Source: Candidatus Niyogibacteria bacterium
Lineage (GTDB): Bacteria > Patescibacteriota > Minisyncoccia > HO2-45-28
Assembly: GCA_016432485.1 (NCBI GenBank)
Contig: CP066691.1
Location: 740,944 to 804,943, forward strand
Direction of reading: 5' to 3'
Length of the DNA: 64,000 nt
The first letter of the stretch is position 1, and every line of letters starts with the position of its first letter. A model generated the notes under the pieces. It had not been told where the DNA came from. It saw only the letters and a program-made list of their open reading frames with translations, and ran no database searches. Of this stretch, positions 17,152 to 56,840 are shown one piece after another. The position numbers and the translations under genes were made by a program.

Positions 17152-17541
17152 ATGACTGATGAAATAAAGAAAAAAATACTTATTGTAGATGATGATGAAT
17201 TTTTACTGGATATGTACGCGATTAAATTCCGCGAATCGGGCTTTGAAATTGAAGTGACTATTTCCGGCCCCAGCGCTTTGGATAAAATAAAAAACGGATT
17301 TAGTCCCGACATCATACTTTTGGATATAGTTATGCCCGGAATGGACGGCTTTGAATTTTTAAAACAGCTGAAAAAAGAGAATCTTGCTCCGAGTGCTGAG
17401 GTGGTTATTTTGACCAATCTCGGCCAAAAAGAGGACGTGCAAAAAGGGCTGGCTATGGGCGCTAAGGATTATGTGATTAAAGCCCATCACACGCCGTCGG
17501 AAATAGTGGCCAAGGTTAAAAGCATCCTTTCAAATTTATAG
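17152..17541 (+). CDS. single-domain response regulator (CheY-like receiver)
   Basis: ILIVDDDEF...DIILLDIVMPGMDG...K receiver signature. Confidence 0.8.
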   Translation: MTDEIKKKILIVDDDEFLLDMYAIKFRESGFEIEVTISGPSALDKIKNGFSPDIILLDIVMPGMDGFEFLKQLKKENLAPSAEVVILTNLGQKEDVQKGLAMGAKDYVIKAHHTPSEIVAKVKSILSNL

Positions 17542-19923: not shown

Positions 19924-20436
19924 ATGTTTAAATTTTTGAAAAAGAAATGGTTTGGGGGCGGAAGAGGGGGATTCACTCTAATTGAGCTTCTGGTGGTTAT
20001 CGCCATAATCGGCGTTCTGGCTTCGGTTGTACTTGCTTCTTTGAATAGCGCTCGCAGAAAGTCGCGCGACGCCCGCCGCGTTGCCGATGTAAAGCAAATG
20101 CAATTGGCGCTTGAACTTTATTTTGACACTGAAGGCGAATATCCCGATGCGACCTCTAAACTCGCGCCCGATTACATTCCGGCAGTGCCTACGGACCCAG
20201 TGGGTCAAGTGGCTTATCCTTATAACGCCTATACTGCTACGACTATCAGCGCGGGCAATGATTGCGACGAGGCCACGGAGACTTGTCTTTATTACCACGT
20301 GGGAACCAATCTTGAAGAGAGTACCAATCCGGCCTTGCAAAGCGACCGCGATGTTGACGGCGATGTAGTTGACGGTCCGGACGCTGACGGTTGCGCCGAT
20401 GAAGCCAGCAGATATTGCTACGATGTAACGCCGTAA
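19924..20436 (+). CDS. pilA: type IV major pilin (PilA-like)
   Basis: GGFTLIELLVVIAIIGVLASVVLASLNSARRKSRDARR N-terminal pilin helix. Confidence 0.85.
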   Translation: MFKFLKKKWFGGGRGGFTLIELLVVIAIIGVLASVVLASLNSARRKSRDARRVADVKQMQLALELYFDTEGEYPDATSKLAPDYIPAVPTDPVGQVAYPYNAYTATTISAGNDCDEATETCLYYHVGTNLEESTNPALQSDRDVDGDVVDGPDADGCADEASRYCYDVTP

Positions 20437-20508: not shown

Positions 20509-21315
20509 ATGGAGAATGCGTTTATTTTTATCCTGGGCCTTTTTTTCGGAAGTTTTGCCAATGTTTTAGTTTATCGCCTTAATACCGGTGAGCCGATAAT
20601 GTTTTCAAGGTCGCGGTGTTTTTCCTGCGGGCAAAATCTAAAATGGTTTGAGCTTATTCCGGTTTTTTCTTTCTTGTTTTTGAAAGGCCGGTGTCGGGTC
20701 TGCGGCTCAAAAATTTCCTGGCAGTATCCGCTCGTTGAGCTCGCAAGCGGATTTTTGTTTTTGATACTTTATGTTTATATTCCCAGTGGTCCAAGTCCGA
20801 CTTGGACCAGTTGGGCAATTGCGGCCTTATTTTTCTGGCTGCTTTTTGTTATTTCCGTCTATGACCTCCGCCATAAGATAATTCCCAATAATTTGGTTTA
20901 TTTATCAACGGCAGCCGTCGCATTGTTTTTGATAATTGGAAATTTAGATTTCATTGAAAATTGGAAATTGTTAATTGAACATTTTGCCGCGGGAATCGGC
21001 CTTTTTGCTTTCTTCGGCGGCCTGTGGTTTATCTCTCGCGGCCGCTGGATGGGTTTTGGGGATGCTAAAATGGCATTCGCCCTCGGATTATTTTTGGGCT
21101 GGCCCGAAACGCTCGCCGCTTTCTTTTTTTCTTTTTGGATTGGGGCCTTCTTTGGCCTTATTCTTGCCTTTTATAACTATAAGCTAAAAGCTAAAAGCTA
21201 TAAGCTGTTGAGCGGGACGCAAGTTCCTTTTGCTCCCTTTATTTTTTTGGGCGGGCTTGCCGCGTATTTATGGGCTGACGCGATTATATTTTGGTATTTG
21301 TCGTTACTCGGTTAG
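20509..21315 (+). CDS. pilD: prepilin peptidase PilD (A24 family)
   Basis: N-terminal CFSC...CRVC zinc motif, multi-TM, conserved Asp residues. Confidence 0.85.
   Translation: MENAFIFILGLFFGSFANVLVYRLNTGEPIMFSRSRCFSCGQNLKWFELIPVFSFLFLKGRCRVCGSKISWQYPLVELASGFLFLILYVYIPSGPSPTWTSWAIAALFFWLLFVISVYDLRHKIIPNNLVYLSTAAVALFLIIGNLDFIENWKLLIEHFAAGIGLFAFFGGLWFISRGRWMGFGDAKMAFALGLFLGWPETLAAFFFSFWIGAFFGLILAFYNYKLKAKSYKLLSGTQVPFAPFIFLGGLAAYLWADAIIFWYLSLLG
21177..21210 (+). repeat. 34-bp segment ctataagctaaaagctaaaagctataagctgttg built on (aaagcta)3, in-frame within pilD (encodes YKLKAKSYKLL)
   Basis: 33/34 identical to 59735-59768 in an unrelated GT4 gene; core shared with 61358-61389. Confidence 0.85.
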
Positions 21316-21913: not shown

Positions 21914-22438
21914 ATGTTGAAATTCTCAATCCTCAATTCTCAATCTTCAATTAAGCGCGGATTTACGCTACTCGAAACTTTAGTGGCCATAGCCGTATTG
22001 TCGCTGGCTCTTGCCGGAGTATTGTCACTTTCTTCAATCGGCATACGCTCGTCTTCCGGAGCCAGCAATCAAATTAAAGCTTTCTTTTTAGCAAGCGAAG
22101 GAGTGGAATACGTCAGGAATAAGCGCGATGCCAATATTCTTGCCGGTTCTAATTGGATAAGCGGTCTTAACGGCTGCGAAGGAGGCTGTTATGTTGATGT
22201 GTACGCGCCGGGTGGCATTGTTCACTGTTCCGGCGCTTGTCCGAAACTGAGATTTGATGCGTTTAGCAACCGTTTTGATTATGACCCGGACAGCCAAGAG
22301 ACGATCTTTACTCGCAAAATAATCATTGTTCCGATTAACTCGCAAGAAATCAGTCTTTCATCCGAAGTTTCTTGGGTCCAGGGAGGAATTACCCGCGGTT
22401 TTTCTTTGGAGGAACATCTTTTTGATTTGTCTTTTTAA
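21914..22438 (+). CDS. minor pilin / pseudopilin
   Basis: long leader then GFTLLETLVAIAVLSLAL. Confidence 0.75.
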   Translation: MLKFSILNSQSSIKRGFTLLETLVAIAVLSLALAGVLSLSSIGIRSSSGASNQIKAFFLASEGVEYVRNKRDANILAGSNWISGLNGCEGGCYVDVYAPGGIVHCSGACPKLRFDAFSNRFDYDPDSQETIFTRKIIIVPINSQEISLSSEVSWVQGGITRGFSLEEHLFDLSF

Positions 22439-23978: not shown

Positions 23979-26010
<2,032 letters not shown>

Positions 26011-26213: not shown

Positions 26214-26438
26214 ATGATTTCTCCAAAAGATGTGAAAAAAGCGGCGGAACTCTCAAGATTGAAACTTTCCGCCAAAGAGGAAAAAGAATTAAGCCGAGAA
26301 CTTGAGTCAATTCTGGGTTACATAGATAAGCTTAAAGAAGTTAATGTTTCGGGCGTTGCCGAAACAAGCCATGTTTTTCATGTTAATGATTTCAGAGAGG
26401 ACATCCGGCCGAAAGAAATTTTTGATTCATCTACTTGA
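26214..26438 (+). CDS. gatC: Asp/Glu-tRNA amidotransferase subunit C (start at ATG 26214 rather than TTG 26193)
   Basis: ISPKDVKKAAELSRLKLSAKEEKELSRELESILGYIDKL matches GatC. Confidence 0.75.
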   Translation: MISPKDVKKAAELSRLKLSAKEEKELSRELESILGYIDKLKEVNVSGVAETSHVFHVNDFREDIRPKEIFDSST

Positions 26439-27880
26439 CAGTTTCCAAAGTCAAAAACCTTTTGCATAAAGGAGAAATTTCCTCTAGGGAACTGGTTACG
26501 ATTTATTCCGAAGAAATTAAATCAAAAAATAAAAATTTAAACGCGTATCTTGAGACCTTTAATGATGTTTTTGATGAAGCCGAAAAAATTGATGAACATT
26601 TAAAAAGAGGCGAGGAGCCGAGGGCGCTTGAGGGTATTCCGTTCGCGATTAAAGACAACATTTTAATTCAGGGCAAAATTTGCTCGGCGGCTTCCCGCAT
26701 GCTTGAAAATTACAGGGCTTCTTATGACGCTTTTGTCATTAAAAAACTGCGTAAGGCCGGCGCGATTTTTTTAGGCCGTACCAATATGGATGAATTTGCG
26801 ATGGGTTCATCCACCGAAAATTCGGCGTTCGGCGCGACTAAAAATCCTTATGACGAGACGCGCGTTCCCGGAGGTTCTTCGGGCGGTTCGGCCGCGGCGG
26901 TTAGCGCGAATATGGCTTTAGCCGCTCTGGGTTCGGACACCGGCGGCTCCATCAGACAGCCGGCGGGATTTTGCGGGGTCGTCGGACTTAAGCCGACTTA
27001 CGGCGCTGTTTCCCGCTCGGGACTTATCGCCATGGCTTCGTCTTTAGACCAAATCGGGCCGATTACGAAAACTGTTGAGGATGCGGAACTTATTTTTGAT
27101 ATTATCAAAGGCAAAGATCCTAAAGATTCAACTAGTGTTGAATCCAACATCCAACATCCTCCGACTTCATCGAGAGTCCTCGATAAGTTCGGGACAACAT
27201 CCAACATCCAAAAGTTGAAAATAGGAATACCGAAGGAGTTTTATAGTGGAGGGATTGATAAAGATGTTTTGGAGATTGTGAATCGTGCGGCCGAGACATT
27301 TCGGGGGCTCGGACACGAAGTTAAAGAGGTTTCCTTGCCCCATGCTCCTTACGCTCTGGCCGTTTATTACATCGTTGTTCCGGCGGAGGTTTCGGCGAAT
27401 ATGTCTCGTTTTGACGGCCTGCGTTACGGCCTTCATAAATCCGGAAAAAATTTACTTTCCGAATATATGGAAACGCGCTCGGCCGGTTTCGGCCCGGAAA
27501 CCAGGCGCAGGATAATTTTGGGAACCTATGTTTTATCGGCCGGATATTACGACGCTTATTACGCGCGCGCATCTAAAGTGCGCGCGCTCATTAAAAAGGA
27601 TTTTGAAAAAGTATTCGGCGATGTGGATGTTCTGCTAGCGCCCGCTTCTCCGAACCCCGCTTTTAAAATCGGAGAGAAAATCAATAATCCTCTTTCAATG
27701 TATCTTGAAGATATTTTTTTGGTGCCGGCCAATCTCGCCGGCCTTCCGGCAATGTCTTTACCTTTCGGCTCGGCTACCCGCGACGGTGTTAAATTGCCGG
27801 TCGGAATACAACTCATAGCGCCGTGGTTTGAAGAAAAGACCCTCTTTGAAGCCGGCCGTCTTCTTGAGGCGCATAAGTAA
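26435..27880 (+). CDS. gatA: Asp/Glu-tRNA amidotransferase subunit A (amidase signature)
   Basis: GGSSGGSAAAV amidase signature, 481 aa, overlaps gatC by 4 nt. Confidence 0.9.
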   Translation: MTVSKVKNLLHKGEISSRELVTIYSEEIKSKNKNLNAYLETFNDVFDEAEKIDEHLKRGEEPRALEGIPFAIKDNILIQGKICSAASRMLENYRASYDAFVIKKLRKAGAIFLGRTNMDEFAMGSSTENSAFGATKNPYDETRVPGGSSGGSAAAVSANMALAALGSDTGGSIRQPAGFCGVVGLKPTYGAVSRSGLIAMASSLDQIGPITKTVEDAELIFDIIKGKDPKDSTSVESNIQHPPTSSRVLDKFGTTSNIQKLKIGIPKEFYSGGIDKDVLEIVNRAAETFRGLGHEVKEVSLPHAPYALAVYYIVVPAEVSANMSRFDGLRYGLHKSGKNLLSEYMETRSAGFGPETRRRIILGTYVLSAGYYDAYYARASKVRALIKKDFEKVFGDVDVLLAPASPNPAFKIGEKINNPLSMYLEDIFLVPANLAGLPAMSLPFGSATRDGVKLPVGIQLIAPWFEEKTLFEAGRLLEAHK

Positions 27881-52748: not shown

Positions 52749-54233
52749 GTGGCACGAGAAGGAAAAATCCAGATAATAAAATATGCTCCGCCGCCGCCGG
52801 AACTTCCGGTCTATAAGCAAGTTGACCCGAAAGAGGCCGTTTTTTTCGGACGCACCAATTACGTAGCCGGACTTGAGGAAAAGCGGTTCATATTCGGTAT
52901 CAAGCGAAGAGACCGCCGGCGCCATATGTATATAATCGGAAAATCGGGCGTCGGAAAAAGCAAGCTTTTGGAATTGATGTTAAGGCAGGATATTCAATAC
53001 GGCCATGGCGTTTGCTTGATTGATCCGCATGGAGACGTCATAGAAGAGGTCTTAAAATTTATTCCTGAAGAGCGCGTTAGAGACACCATTTTAGTTGATC
53101 CGTCCGATACTGCCTGGCCGATTTCTTTTAATCCGCTACAGAATATAAATCCGGAATTGAAACATCAGGTGGCTCAAGGCCTGATTGAAGTTATGGAAAA
53201 ACAATTCGGCGCGAATTGGACCCCCAGGCTTGAGCACGTTTTTCGTTTTACTGTTCTTGCTCTTCTTGATTTTCCAATGGCGACTATGCGCGGAATGATT
53301 TCAATGCTCGTGGATCGTAAATACCGTCAAAAGGTTGTTGAGTATATTGAAGACGAAATGGTCAAGCGTTTTTGGGCGATTGAATTTGCCGATTGGTCCG
53401 AAAAATTTGATACCGAAGCGATCATTCCGCTAGTCAATAAACTCGGCCAGTTTTTGGCCAATCCTTATCTGCGCTACATTTTTGGTCAGCGCGAAAATAA
53501 AGTTGACCTTGAGCGCGCGATGAACGAGAAAAAAATTCTTTTAATCAATCTTTCAAGAGGAAGGCTTGGAGAGGAAAATTCAAGTTTTTTGGGTTCAATG
53601 TTTATCACTAAAATAAAGCAAGCCGGAATGGCGCGCGCGTCAATGTCCGAGGAAGATCGCGAAGATTTTTATCTATACGTAGATGAGTTTCATAATTTGG
53701 TTACGGCCACATTTGTTAACATTTTTTCCGAAGCCAGAAAATACGGAGTTTCTTTGACGGTGGCCCATCAGTTTTTCGGCCAGCTTATTCAGCATGTTCG
53801 CGAATCAGTAATCGGTAATGTCGGCACTATGGTTGTTTTCAGAGTCGGCGGTGACGACGCGGCGAAGCTGGAAGCGGAGATGACGCCGGTATTCAAAGCA
53901 AAAGATATGGTTAATCTCGGCACTCAGCAATTTTACATAAAAATGACTATTGACGGCGACACCTATGACCCGTTTTCCGCCGAAACTTTGAAAGTTTTAC
54001 CGCCGGTCCACAAGTCTTTCAAAGACGAAATAATTAAATTCAGCCGCGAGAATTATGCCGCTCCGGCCGAAGAAGTGAAAAGAAAAATTCTTGAAGAAGA
54101 AAACGAACTTTTGGGGCTTGCCTCCGCGCCCGGGAAAACACTCGGTGTTGAGACCTTAAAAACACCGGGTGTTGAGTGGGGCGCGGTCAAAGAATCCGCT
54201 CTTCCCGATTCACCTCCCGAACCGATAGTATAA
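52749..54233 (+). CDS. soluble TraD/TrwB/VirD4-like (AAA_10/DUF87-type) P-loop ATPase
   Basis: HMYIIGKSGVGKSKL Walker A, YLYVDEFHN Walker B, AHQ, GNVGTMVVFRV; no TM segments. Confidence 0.6.
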   Translation: MAREGKIQIIKYAPPPPELPVYKQVDPKEAVFFGRTNYVAGLEEKRFIFGIKRRDRRRHMYIIGKSGVGKSKLLELMLRQDIQYGHGVCLIDPHGDVIEEVLKFIPEERVRDTILVDPSDTAWPISFNPLQNINPELKHQVAQGLIEVMEKQFGANWTPRLEHVFRFTVLALLDFPMATMRGMISMLVDRKYRQKVVEYIEDEMVKRFWAIEFADWSEKFDTEAIIPLVNKLGQFLANPYLRYIFGQRENKVDLERAMNEKKILLINLSRGRLGEENSSFLGSMFITKIKQAGMARASMSEEDREDFYLYVDEFHNLVTATFVNIFSEARKYGVSLTVAHQFFGQLIQHVRESVIGNVGTMVVFRVGGDDAAKLEAEMTPVFKAKDMVNLGTQQFYIKMTIDGDTYDPFSAETLKVLPPVHKSFKDEIIKFSRENYAAPAEEVKRKILEEENELLGLASAPGKTLGVETLKTPGVEWGAVKESALPDSPPEPIV

Positions 54234-54344
54234 TAAATTTCCCTCTGTTCAATATGGGTAGATTGAACATTAGAGCTAAAAATCCTTATTTTAAGCCATT
54301 TTTTAGCTTTTTGGTGTTGCGAAGCTATTGAACCATTGCAAGAG

Positions 54345-54372
54345 CTTGACGAGATGCGGTGAGGTGGTATGA
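54345..54372 (+). promoter_or_regulatory. sigma-70 promoter P4: TTGACG-16-TATGAT, preceded by 18-nt motif aagctattgaaccattgc shared with P1
   Basis: near-consensus hexamers; same motif-to--35 spacing as the ancestral form inferred for P1. Confidence 0.55.
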
Positions 54373-54435
54373 TGGCAACGGTTGGGACACGGTGTCCCCG
54401 CACATTAAACTATTTTTGAGAAAAGAGGAGGAACG

Positions 54436-54858
54436 ATGGACCTGGAAAAGCTGGAAGAAGTTCTTGATCAAATTTTGGAAGCGATAGGGAATGGCGCAAA
54501 CGAAGACGTAGTGAGGGATCTGTTTGATGTCCTCTATGAAGGCGTGGTTTCAGAATATCGTCCTGTTCTGAAGGTTCTCCCGCATGTGGCTGATAAGGTT
54601 GCTGCTGATTTGGTTCCCATCATACAAGTTTTTGTCAGAATATTTAATGCTGTAGAATCAGACAAAACTTTGCAGAAGGAACTCGCTGCATATAAAAACG
54701 ACCGCGCAAAGAAGCGTTTTGCCGCTCTTAAGATTTATCAGAAAGCCGGATTTACTCGTCATGAAGCAATGCAGTTGGTATTACAAGACATTGCTAATTT
54801 TAAAGCTCTGCGACAGGAGGTATCAAAGATAAAAGGACCCACCTCCTCAAAGAAGTAG
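54436..54858 (+). CDS. hypothetical protein O4 (140 aa, all-helical prediction)
   Basis: SD gaggagga before ATG; own promoter and terminator; splits two paralogous ATPase genes. Confidence 0.55.
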   Translation: MDLEKLEEVLDQILEAIGNGANEDVVRDLFDVLYEGVVSEYRPVLKVLPHVADKVAADLVPIIQVFVRIFNAVESDKTLQKELAAYKNDRAKKRFAALKIYQKAGFTRHEAMQLVLQDIANFKALRQEVSKIKGPTSSKK

Positions 54859-54875
54859 AGAGGAAAAATTTTATT

Positions 54876-54907
54876 GCCCAACCTTTTTGGATTGGGCGAT
54901 TTTGTTT
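54876..54907 (+). terminator. intrinsic terminator (gcccaaccttttt ggattgggc + T-run)
   Basis: stem-loop followed by gattttgttt. Confidence 0.65.
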
Positions 54908-54947
54908 GGCATACAAATTTATATATAAATGTGGCATAATATAATTA

Positions 54948-56840
54948 ATGGCAAAAGATACGGTTTATTTCGCGAGAACGAATTTCAGAGGCGAAAATAA
55001 AATTTTCGGCATTAAGGTTTCTGACCGTCGCCAGCATACTTATATCATCGGAAAAACCGGCACCGGAAAATCGGCGCTTATCAAGAATTTCGCGATTCAG
55101 GATATTAATTCCGGAAAAGGAATTTGCGTGGTTGATCCTCACGGAGAGCTGGTTGAGGAATTGCTGTCCAGAATTCCTAAAGACCGGATTAAAGACGTCA
55201 TTTATTTCAACCCGGCCGACACCGACTTTCCTTTGGGTTTTAACGTTCTTGAAGTTCCGGATAAAAAATACAAACACCTTGTGGCGCAGGGCCTGATAGG
55301 CATATTTACTAAAATTTGGGCGAATGTCTGGTCGGCGCGCATGGAATATATTTTGCAGAATTGCATCTTGGCTTTGATTGAGACTCCGGGCACGACACTT
55401 TTGGGAATCCAAAGAATTTTGACCGACAAAGATTACCGCCAAAGGATTTTAGCTAATGTTACAGATCCGGTGGTGCGAGCTTTTTGGGTTAACGAATATG
55501 AAGTGTGGCAGGAGCGTTTTCGCAACGAAGCCATCGTGCCGATTCAAAATAAAGTCGGCCAATTCGTTTCAACGTCATTGATACGTAATATCGTCGGGCA
55601 GACCAAATCTAGCTTTGATGCTTATGAATTGATGAATGAAGGCAAAATACTGCTGGCCAATATTTCAAAGGGCCGGGTGGGGGAGGAAAACTCAATGCTT
55701 TTGGGGGCCATGCTCATAACTAAAGTCCAGCTCGCGGCAATGGAAAGGGTCAGGATCCCGGAAGAGGAACGAGAGGACTATTATCTCTATGTTGACGAGT
55801 TTCAGAACTTTGCTACTGAAGCTTTCGCGTCTATTTTGTCCGAGGCCAGAAAATACCGTTTGAATCTTATTATTGCTCATCAGTATACCGGCCAATTGGT
55901 TTCGGAAACTTCAACTAAAGTGCGCGACGCGGTTTTTGGCAACGTCGGCACGATGATCGCTTTCAGGGTCGGGGCGACGGACGCCGAATTTTTAGAAAAA
56001 GAATTTGAGCCGGAATTTACCATCCAGGACCTTGTTGATTTGCCGAACTATAATATTTATTTGAAGCTTATGGTCAACGGCGTGGCTAGCCGGCCATTTT
56101 CGGCAATTACTCTGCCGCCTCTGGAGACGACTAAAGATATGGTTTCTCCCGAGGAAATTATTGAATCTTCGCGCGAAAAATACGGCCGTCTGGTGGACGA
56201 AGTGGAGCTGGATATTAAAAAATGGAGCGGTTCTCTGCCGAGCGTTGATACTGAAAATGATAAAACCGAAGCCGAAAGTGCTGCGTCAAAAAGCGAGCGT
56301 TTCGAGACCCCCTGCTGGATTTGCAAAAAGTCGGCAACGATTCCTTTCAAGCCGGATGGCCGCCGGCCGGTTTATTGCTCGGATTGTTTGAAAAAAATTG
56401 AATCAGGCCAATTGCAGCCGCTCAGGCCGCTTCCGACATCCAGGGCGGACCGAGAGGAATTTGGGGGCAACTTGGGATTAATGGGCATTGAATTTTTAGG
56501 AAAGCCGGCCCCATCTTCTTCCGGCCGTTTTACGCAGCCGAAGACTCCGGAAAAATCAGCATCAAGAGCGGGAAATACGGGACGCCAAAGTGGCGCTATG
56601 CCGATTACAAGCGGAGGGCCGGTAATAAAAAAAACTCCGTCCGAAAAAACACTTTCGCTTGATGATTTGAAAGCCAAAGCGTGGCAGAACATGAAAAGAG
56701 ATAAAAATATTCAAATTGAAGAGTTGCGTAAGGCCTTAAAAGAAAGCATGGCTGACGAAGAAAAAAGCGAAAAAAAACCGGAAGAAGAACATTCTAAATC
56801 TAAAACGCTTAAACCCGGCGACAGCATAAAGTTCAATTAG
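54948..56840 (+). CDS. TraD/VirD4-like P-loop ATPase paralog with C-terminal CxxC...CxxC zinc ribbon and Lys/Glu-rich tail
   Basis: YIIGKTGTGKSAL, YLYVDEFQN, AHQYTGQL; paralog of 52749 across the whole ATPase domain; CWICKK...CSDC. Confidence 0.6.
   Translation: MAKDTVYFARTNFRGENKIFGIKVSDRRQHTYIIGKTGTGKSALIKNFAIQDINSGKGICVVDPHGELVEELLSRIPKDRIKDVIYFNPADTDFPLGFNVLEVPDKKYKHLVAQGLIGIFTKIWANVWSARMEYILQNCILALIETPGTTLLGIQRILTDKDYRQRILANVTDPVVRAFWVNEYEVWQERFRNEAIVPIQNKVGQFVSTSLIRNIVGQTKSSFDAYELMNEGKILLANISKGRVGEENSMLLGAMLITKVQLAAMERVRIPEEEREDYYLYVDEFQNFATEAFASILSEARKYRLNLIIAHQYTGQLVSETSTKVRDAVFGNVGTMIAFRVGATDAEFLEKEFEPEFTIQDLVDLPNYNIYLKLMVNGVASRPFSAITLPPLETTKDMVSPEEIIESSREKYGRLVDEVELDIKKWSGSLPSVDTENDKTEAESAASKSERFETPCWICKKSATIPFKPDGRRPVYCSDCLKKIESGQLQPLRPLPTSRADREEFGGNLGLMGIEFLGKPAPSSSGRFTQPKTPEKSASRAGNTGRQSGAMPITSGGPVIKKTPSEKTLSLDDLKAKAWQNMKRDKNIQIEELRKALKESMADEEKSEKKPEEEHSKSKTLKPGDSIKFN

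Follow-up and report, generated by a model that had tools for sequence, protein, structure and literature searches.

In-frame heptanucleotide repeats of the AGCTAAA family in a prepilin peptidase gene and two glycosyltransferase genes of Candidatus Niyogibacteria

Bacteria show an excess of heptameric simple-sequence repeats (SSRs), which has been ascribed tentatively to slippage of the polymerase (PMC4679880, PMC4692102). Described families include GGGAATC of Xanthomonas and GGGGAYT of Nostoc (PMC4692102), along with two cited in later papers, the "long SSRs" of Mrazek et al. 2007 (in PMC4679880 and PMC4692102) and the short tandemly repeated repetitive (STRR) heptamers of Calothrix (in PMC4692102). 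The TAACTGA repeats of Beggiatoaceae, Cyanobacteria, and Bacteroidetes lie mostly just 5' of start codons, and their distribution points to horizontal spread by a mechanism that is not known (MacGregor 2015, PMC4679880). Occasional copies inside open reading frames (ORFs) encode a 7-residue periodic peptide, in the stop-free orientation only and at the protein periphery (PMC4679880). Here, we analyze repeats of this kind in a 64,000-nucleotide stretch of a Candidatus Niyogibacteria genome (assembly GCA_016432485.1, contig CP066691.1, positions 740,944 to 804,943; hereafter the window), where a 34-bp segment built of 7-nt units lies inside a prepilin peptidase gene, pilD, and recurs in two GT4 glycosyltransferase genes.

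Short repeats inside genes are known from other systems. Rickettsia palindromic elements lie in frame in unrelated genes, essential ones included, at tolerated positions. They are ~100–150 bp long, palindromic, and true insertions. DNA uptake sequences of Pasteurellaceae and Neisseriaceae sit in genes where their translation is tolerated, are linked to recombination, occur about once per kb, and are lineage-specific. In Escherichia coli K1, the NeuO poly-heptad (AAGACTC)n has 3 to 53 perfect units; it is OFF in 66% of genomes, and variants of plus or minus one unit make up 2–5% within a culture (PMC13001214).

All three host genes in the window lie on the + strand. The prepilin peptidase (A24) gene pilD (20509..21315; Pfam PF06750 and PF01478) contains two heptamer arrays, A and B. 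Array B (21177-21210, +) reads CTATAAGCTAAAAGCTAAAAGCTATAAGCTGTTG, which divides into CT ATAAGCT AAAAGCT AAAAGCT ATAAGCT GTTG and encodes Y-K-L-K-A-K-S-Y-K-L-L. The first glycosyltransferase gene, GT4-1 (59472..60650; PF00534, PF13692, and PF13439, and homologues), carries its array at 59735-59768 (+). The sequence is CTATAAGCTAAAAGCTAAAAGCTATAATCTGTTG and the peptide Y-K-L-K-A-K-S-Y-N-L-L. The second, GT4-2 (60647..61762, assigned by Pfam), has a start that overlaps the GT4-1 stop codon (ATGA) and is set by the 371-aa database protein P0241. Its array (61357-61389, +) is GCTAAAAGCTAAAAGCTATCAGCTAAAAGCTAA, or GCTAAAA GCTAAAA GCTATCA GCTAAAA GCTAA, with the peptide (A)L-K-A-K-S-Y-Q-L-K-A-N. The PilD, GT4-1, and GT4-2 proteins match at 100% proteins of a Candidatus Niyogibacteria metagenome-assembled genome with an 836,981-bp contig.

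These sequences and positions agree with an earlier preliminary description of the window, which had reported the same hosts, a near-perfect match between pilD and GT4-1, and a third, related tract. The pilD and GT4-1 34-mers share 33 of 34 bases and differ at position 28 (G versus T). An 18-mer, GCTAAAAGCTAAAAGCTA, has eight overlapping matches with at most two mismatches, all within the three tracts, where shuffled sequence gives an expectation of 0.02. No further copy of the tract occurs on either strand of the 64-kb window. Tandem Repeats Finder calls a period of 7 at all three sites, with 4.3, 3.6, and 4.7 copies. Each tract is an interrupted array of four or five units, two of them perfect. 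The arrays lie deep in their ORFs, at codon 223 of 268 in pilD, 89 of 392 in GT4-1, and 238 of 371 in GT4-2, and those of GT4-1 and GT4-2 occupy non-homologous positions of the two genes. One of the two explanations first offered, a heptanucleotide SSR, is borne out by these tandem units, which are evident both by reading the sequence and from Tandem Repeats Finder.

The three tracts belong with the heptanucleotide SSRs already known from bacteria, on all four properties by which we recognized that class. Direct 7-nt tandem repeats in three or more copies are present at every site. Units change in concert among orthologues of GT4-1 and GT4-2, and array length changes as well (array A of pilD, +21 nt; a GT4-2 orthologue in locus L133, +1 unit and -1 nt). 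The AGCTAAA-type unit is found at many unrelated loci in scattered taxa. Finally, period 7 is over-represented relative to other periods, both in the window and in the loci fetched for comparison (L numbers). The window holds seven period-7 tracts against ~1 in shuffles, and A/T runs dominate the yield of other periods. Candidate phyla radiation (CPR) loci contain 73 period-7 tracts against 2–11 for each other period and those from other phyla 124 against at most 14, although the loci were picked for one such array, so that about half of the period-7 count is the seed. The dispersed class to which they belong is common in some bacterial phyla.

With moderate confidence, we read the 34-bp segment as an AGCTAAA-family heptanucleotide microsatellite, short and interrupted, and as a single locus within a dispersed 7-nt class, made and kept by misaligned templating and recombination, and neither an element nor a functional sequence. 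Two processes would create such arrays, homogenize them, and preserve their periodicity: misaligned templating in a 7-nt register, at replication or repair, and recombination over short patches or gene conversion. Reading frame and protein tolerance would then filter them. Neither a dedicated element nor a selected function would be required. This mutational reading fits the literature on over-represented heptamers and the slippage proposed for them (PMC4679880, PMC4692102).

At the GT4-1 site, six orthologues (58–94% protein identity) have tracts of equal length, all heptamer-periodic. The unit is TAAAAGC in the window, TAACAGC in L002 and L128, TACRAAC in L127, TACNAAA in L126, TCCAAAT in L125, and degenerate in L003. 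The L125 array consists of 4.3 copies of TCCAAAT, all perfect. The encoded peptides are fully different by lineage (KLKAKSY, KLTANSY, ELQTMNY, QIQNTKY, and KFQIPNS). Judged from these alignments, DNA periodicity is what is conserved at the GT4-1 site, and the protein is not. At the GT4-2 site, orthologues of 66–87% identity share the codons CTA AAA GCT AAA AGC TAT, and so on. Four flanking codons (GSGP) vary at synonymous sites, and the synonymous sites within the tract are more conserved. The unit at this site is CTAAACG in L003. In L133, there are five perfect CAAGCTA units in an array 6 nt longer, the length change already given. Orthologous arrays hold the 7-nt periodicity while all copies of the unit change together, which on the orthologues compared amounts to concerted evolution.

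The shared codons indicate that constraint or homogenization acts at the nucleotide level. They uphold the preliminary argument that nucleotide identity across unrelated genes is not protein convergence. The description had named relatives that encode the same peptide with different codons as grounds for refutation, and GT4-2 orthologues use the same ones. More distant GT4-1 relatives, drawn from 80 Joint Genome Institute (JGI) metagenome loci at 43–66% identity, are mostly array-free and shorter (by ~6 residues at 43–53% identity). Real arrays among them occur only in the closest clade (L136 and L138), and other windows flagged for periodicity are A-rich low-complexity sequence. The array at this site thus arose within one clade. 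No frameshifted GT4-1 allele stood out among these 80 relatives, a distant set at 43–66% identity.

The preliminary description also drew on the fact that all three tracts are in frame and encode a KLKAKSY peptide. That is true of all three, as is the shared strand, yet it is not independent evidence, as stop codons force it. The 19-mer GCTAAAAGCTAAAAGCTAT and the 34-mer each have one stop-free frame of six, with stops in the other five. The sole open frame reads L-K-A-K-S-Y for the 19-mer and Y-K-L-K-A-K-S-Y-K-L-L for the 34-mer. Because the other five frames carry stops, any copy inside an ORF must lie on the coding strand, in one frame, with one peptide. The coincidence of "same frame, same peptide" is an automatic outcome. 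A perfect (AAGCTAA)3 would bring TAA in frame; the third unit here has TAT instead. A longer perfect AAGCTAA run would do the same.

The AGCTAAA family extends well beyond this genome. We scanned bacterial genomes, one from each species, for exact matches to the 19-mer, and all counts that follow are among the matches listed. At least 120 genome stretches match, against 4–12 expected by chance, in Patescibacteria, Bacteroidota, Cyanobacteria, Acidobacteriota, Planctomycetota, Chloroflexota, and others. Intergenic arrays occur in Chitinophaga and other Bacteroidota, in Moorena, Pleurocapsa, and other Cyanobacteria, and in Acidobacteriota, Planctomycetota, and Chloroflexota. Outside the CPR they reach ten or more units, frequently with an inverted array adjacent. 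Some 40 copies lie within long ORFs, nearly all in CPR/Patescibacteria records. Their hosts include LepA, Fmt (in three lineages), TrmD, TsaD, LeuRS, IleRS, ValRS, GlyRS, MurB, TpiA, PurH, MiaA, MnmA, alanine racemase, a pilin leader, and several GT4 enzymes. A link to surface structures, suggested earlier from the window, holds there, where all three hosts are surface-related. Across genomes the hosts are mostly housekeeping genes, though GT4 recurs. Arrays can also be locally dense. In GCA_964574495.1 (L128, 8811-12201), four AGCT-core heptamer arrays span three adjacent GT4 genes, and a Moranbacteria contig (L059) has at least four heptamer arrays in 8 kb.

Arrays outside ORFs show strong enrichment immediately upstream of start codons. 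Of 85 such arrays, 16 terminate at most 5 nt from a long ORF's ATG, and 34 terminate within 53 nt of a start ATG, against 14% for random positions. Among the loci L005-L124, the terminal ...GCTATG of the array often provides the start codon (for example, in L008, L015, L026, L029, L088, and L093), and many (AGCTAAA)n arrays follow an inverted (AGCTGTT/AGCCGTT)n array. By analogy with the TAACTGA repeats, this placement suggests a role for start-adjacent (AGCTAAA)n arrays outside the CPR in 5' leaders.

Several other heptamer families occupy CPR coding regions. Heptamer-coded periodic peptides in CPR aminoacyl-tRNA synthetases and GT4 enzymes (L045, L107, L041, and L125) include SQKSKVKSQK (AAAAGTC), IPNSKFQ/KFQIPNS (AAATTCC), and LPITNY.

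Compared with GCA_964574495.1 (L001 and L128), the window genome is a fine-scale mosaic, in which patches of 97–100% identity, ~100 bp to 2 kb long, interrupt a background of ~72%. Such patches lie at 17199-17470, 19985-20100, 21035-21225, 24052-24589, and 59536-61450. Array B sits at the 3' edge of the ~190-bp pilD patch (21035..21225). The last patch (1.9 kb) is 97–100% identical to L128 and L002 outside a hypervariable stretch of 75 nt (59706..59780), which is centered on the GT4-1 array and has ~66% identity. As read from sequence comparison, the mosaic is a sign of frequent homologous recombination over short tracts. This is in keeping with the window's type IV pilus locus and its putative competence role. 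We also considered the arrays as recombination hot spots. Two of the three are no more than 60 nt from the edge of a patch, and the third has a patch to itself; boundaries fall every ~600 nt, so this proximity is not significant, and we rejected the idea. Two of three independent assemblies that match the window (L131 and L132) begin at 59562 and 59529, breaking no more than ~30 nt from the left boundary of the high-identity segment at ~59536. These breaks suggest strain-level heterogeneity at the recombination junction.

The pilD copy was probably derived from a GT4-1-type array. The CTGTTG tail common to the pilD and GT4-1 tracts lies outside the repeat and encodes Leu-Leu before the conserved LWGMM of GT4-1 orthologues, so it looks native to GT4-1. 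At the left junction in pilD, TATAAC|TATAAG shows TATAA microhomology. Together, the tail and the microhomology are the grounds for this derivation. Array B would then be the youngest copy, an in-frame addition of ~11 codons made by a microhomology-primed template switch or by ectopic conversion. Homologous recombination in the ~190-bp patch could later have carried the tract between lineages.

Whether the tracts are insertions depends on the gene. The preliminary description raised the question whether KLKAKSY is an insertion relative to homologues. In pilD this is so, as array B adds ~6–7 residues relative to 30 of 31 aligned orthologues and is shared by GCA_964574495.1 alone. In GT4-2 it is not; there is no length change, and the tract sits where distant homologues have an L-K-x-K-I-x-N-L-K-L-x-N helix. 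Measured against solved homologue structures, the CPR TrmD tract is a 9-residue insertion, the LepA tract is one residue shorter and replaces the native YKAKDGNTYKL hairpin, and the Fmt tract leaves length unchanged and replaces native ..YEKVLALEPDL... AlphaFold2 (AF2) models of two host proteins have lowered confidence (pLDDT) at the tracts, which are at helix ends and loops. In PilD, the tract spans the end of transmembrane helix 200-226 and loop 227-241, the least confident region. In GT4-1, it runs from the end of helix 68-92 through a loop into the start of strand 98-103. In both models, the tract is predicted to be a helix end and the subsequent loop.

A discrete in-frame insertion element, the other explanation first offered, is not supported by these comparisons. 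The tracts have no termini, inverted repeat, or notable fold, and the lengths of GT4-2, LepA, and Fmt show no insertion. Neither the defined ends of a miniature mobile element nor an inverted copy is found in the window. Length effects are not constant (pilD ~+6–7, TrmD +9, LepA -1, Fmt 0, and GT4-2 0), and no target duplication is seen at pilD beyond the TATAA microhomology at the left junction. Single-stranded DNA folding of the tracts is not notable, with z-scores of -0.8 to +1.1 relative to shuffles. We also rejected the idea that an AGCT palindrome every 7 nt forms mini-hairpins that drive slippage. Shuffled sequences fold as well as the three tracts and a perfect array do, and the AAATTCC array found at the GT4-1 site lacks structure altogether.

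How far the mutational reading reaches has to be judged against observations that weigh against it. Simple slippage leaves unaccounted for both the recurrence of one unit across phyla and the Fmt tracts, where orthologues of only ~45% identity share an identical 19–27 nt at one site; a process specific to the unit, or one of copying, seems to be called for. In essential genes, such as TrmD with its nine added residues, arrays cannot have grown unit by unit without lethal frameshifts. In the 75-nt GT4-1 patch, 25 nt of non-repeat sequence upstream of the array have also been replaced, and no donor for that patch or for the pilD flanks is present among the fetched loci, where the repeat core alone matches elsewhere. 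The recurrence of one unit across phyla and at the Fmt site keeps alive a model of actively propagated sequence, a "selfish microsatellite" whose arrays pass between loci and lineages through ectopic gene conversion or through a bias in how transforming DNA is taken up and recombined, overwriting tolerant stretches of genes. This would be molecular drive of the kind proposed for DNA uptake sequences. The 33/34 match within the genome extends into the CTGTTG tail, whereas the best matches to other genomes reach only 25–28 nt. Of the six differences between the GT4-1 34-mer and those of L128 and L002, five make the window copy equal to the pilD copy, which would be expected of a propagated module. 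The placement of arrays inside or at the edge of short recombination patches points the same way, as does the substitution of similar native segments at unchanged length in LepA (-1), Fmt, and GT4-2. So do the identical unit in orthologues of 45% identity, the different heptamer families held at the GT4-1 site by different lineages, and the type IV pili encoded in the window. However, three copies per 64 kb are far sparser than known uptake sequences. The AGCTAAA unit is shared with unrelated phyla and is intergenic there, dense mosaic boundaries (~1 per 600 nt) weaken the argument from proximity, and the lack of a donor for the GT4-1 flanks among the fetched loci tells against propagation as well. 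One match among 2.9 million contigs of a viral collection also counts against it; on the same result we rejected a phage vector for the arrays. We regard active propagation as doubtful here. The broader claim, that AGCTAAA arrays and their sister families (AAATTCC and AAAAGTC) form a self-propagating class across loci, lineages, and phyla that overwrites CPR genes, essential ones included, is likewise one to which we would give only a small chance.

Functional explanations fare less well. The preliminary description proposed that gain or loss of one 7-nt unit would frameshift pilD or the glycosyltransferases, making the tracts contingency loci that switch pili and surface glycans off and on. 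The unit is not a multiple of three, the tracts lie inside ORFs of surface-related genes (pilD and two GT4), GT4 genes recur among array hosts across genomes, relatives hold four to five perfect units at these GT4 sites, the +1 unit/-1 nt change in L133 resembles a compensated frameshift, and NeuO (AAGACTC)n offers a precedent (PMC13001214). A long perfect run is missing, though, as each site has two perfect units against 3–53 in NeuO. Unit number shows no polymorphism either. Three Logan assemblies, built from different sequencing runs, match the window at 100% identity along 4.4–6.4 kb, both GT4 arrays included, L002 and L128 have the same unit counts, and tract length is the same in array-bearing orthologues of 58–94% identity. 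The motif also occurs in LepA, Fmt, TrmD, and tRNA synthetases, where an OFF state would be lethal. Because they have two perfect units and a stable length, the window tracts are not effective phase-variation switches, and repeat-driven phase variation is unlikely in this genome. Two points temper our preference for a functionless microsatellite. The evidence of stability is at the level of assemblies, so minority length variants in reads fall outside its view. GT4 genes are array-rich and some relatives have four to five perfect units, which makes switching conceivable in other members of the clade. A cis-acting nucleic-acid signal is a further alternative, in which the unit is a DNA or mRNA binding site, for example for a translation or RNA-stability factor, and in-ORF copies are functional or tolerated. 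The start-codon enrichment of non-ORF arrays, its parallel in the TAACTGA repeats (PMC4679880), the inverted partner at many intergenic arrays, and the conservation of in-tract synonymous sites all accord with it. For the start-adjacent arrays of other phyla, such a signal is plausible. It is a poor fit to the internal copies of the window, which lie deep in ORFs without an inverted partner. Their units differ among orthologues at one site, which a specific binding site would not tolerate, and there is no notable fold and no Rfam match. A known RNA family was rejected, as the sole Rfam hits above threshold in the window are six tRNAs, none at the tracts. As an account of the window tracts, we hold a cis-acting signal to be quite improbable. 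Selection on the protein for the K/L/A-rich peptide KLKAKSY, with similar codons arising by chance, is hardly credible. The peptide does resemble the native segments it replaces (LepA YKAKDG..YKL, Fmt ..LALEPDL, and GT4 LKFKIKNLKLEN). However, codons are conserved beyond residues while flanking codons vary, peptides at the GT4-1 site are wholly different between lineages that retain the 7-nt DNA periodicity, and in other phyla the 19-mer turns up unchanged in non-coding DNA. On the first two of these grounds, we reject protein-level convergence.

Other heptamer arrays lie elsewhere in the window. Array A of pilD (20953-20983, +) reads ATTGAAA ATTGGAA ATTGTTA ATTG, of an ATTGRAA family, and encodes I-E-N-W-K-L-L-I. 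Relative to L001 (GCA_964574495.1), it is a clean in-frame indel of +21 nt, or three units. Comparable inserts rich in W, E, I, K, and L are seen at the array A loop of pilD orthologues. A pseudopilin gene (21914..22438) has a leader peptide, MLKFSILNSQSSIKRGFTLLE, encoded by a four-unit array of AATTCTC/AATCCTC (21921-21952, +). A GatA-type amidase gene (26435..27880), which is a housekeeping gene, contains 2.6 copies of ATCCAAC at 27142-27159 (+) and a second ATCCAAC tract at 27195-27211. The arrays of this genome are therefore not limited to surface genes. The flanks of the GT4 cluster (52749-56840 and 61772-63493) encode two TrwB/TraG-like ATPases that carry treble-clef zinc fingers, together with a Cys-rich protein of 573 residues, whose treble-clef match is marginal and below threshold. 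The order ATPase, LTD-PKD protein, and GT4 is conserved in L002, L003, and L128.

For the window itself, the result is mostly deflationary, as it yields neither a mini-transposon nor a convincing switch for pili or glycans. The wider pattern is apparently undescribed. One heptamer occurs across phyla and, in the CPR, lies with sister families in frame in dozens of conserved housekeeping proteins, where concerted evolution maintains their periodicity at fixed sites. The searchable literature holds nothing specific on the AGCTAAA unit, the peptides it encodes, or CPR heptamer repeats, and as far as that literature shows, the AGCTAAA family, its occurrence in many phyla, and the in-frame colonization of CPR housekeeping genes with concerted evolution are new. 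The pattern bears on the annotation and alignment of CPR proteins with odd low-complexity inserts, and it offers a natural system for the origin and persistence of microsatellites where the reading frame is a constraint. It brings an older question into sharper focus as well: why bacteria favor repeats of 7 nt, and particular units, and why these seem to spread from one distant lineage to another. If propagation were true, the arrays would be a "selfish microsatellite" acting across phyla.

Among known systems, Rickettsia palindromic elements are likewise nucleotide-level repeats found in frame in unrelated genes, essential ones included. Unlike them, the tracts here are 20–35 bp, tandem, without notable structure, and often replace native sequence at equal length. 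DNA uptake sequences are similar in being short motifs within genes, at tolerated positions and frames, and associated with recombination. The tracts have neither their density nor their lineage specificity, with three copies per 64 kb and a motif common to many phyla. NeuO has an in-frame heptamer repeat in a surface-glycan enzyme, in which three units make seven codons and the frame depends on unit count. Whereas its units are perfect and at the 5' end, the window arrays are internal, contain two perfect units each, and are constant in length, with no variants in assemblies. Beside NeuO, (CAAACAA)n of Neisseria pglE is another heptamer-repeat precedent. Closer parallels are the known bacterial heptamer SSRs. 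Like the tracts, these have tandem 7-nt units, typically about four per array, with many arrays per genome, perfect and heterogeneous forms, inverted arrangements, and sequences that differ between close relatives, and polymerase slippage is their proposed origin. They are described mainly as intergenic, whereas the CPR arrays lie in frame inside genes, essential ones too, with stops edited out. The TAACTGA repeats (Beggiatoaceae, Cyanobacteria, and Bacteroidetes; MacGregor 2015, PMC4679880) resemble the tracts as one heptamer in short direct repeats (2–6 copies for TAACTGA) across scattered taxa. They differ in their unit, and the CPR AGCTAAA arrays lie mostly inside conserved housekeeping proteins, with concerted evolution at orthologous sites. 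By this comparison, the tracts work most like the TAACTGA and GGGAATC families.

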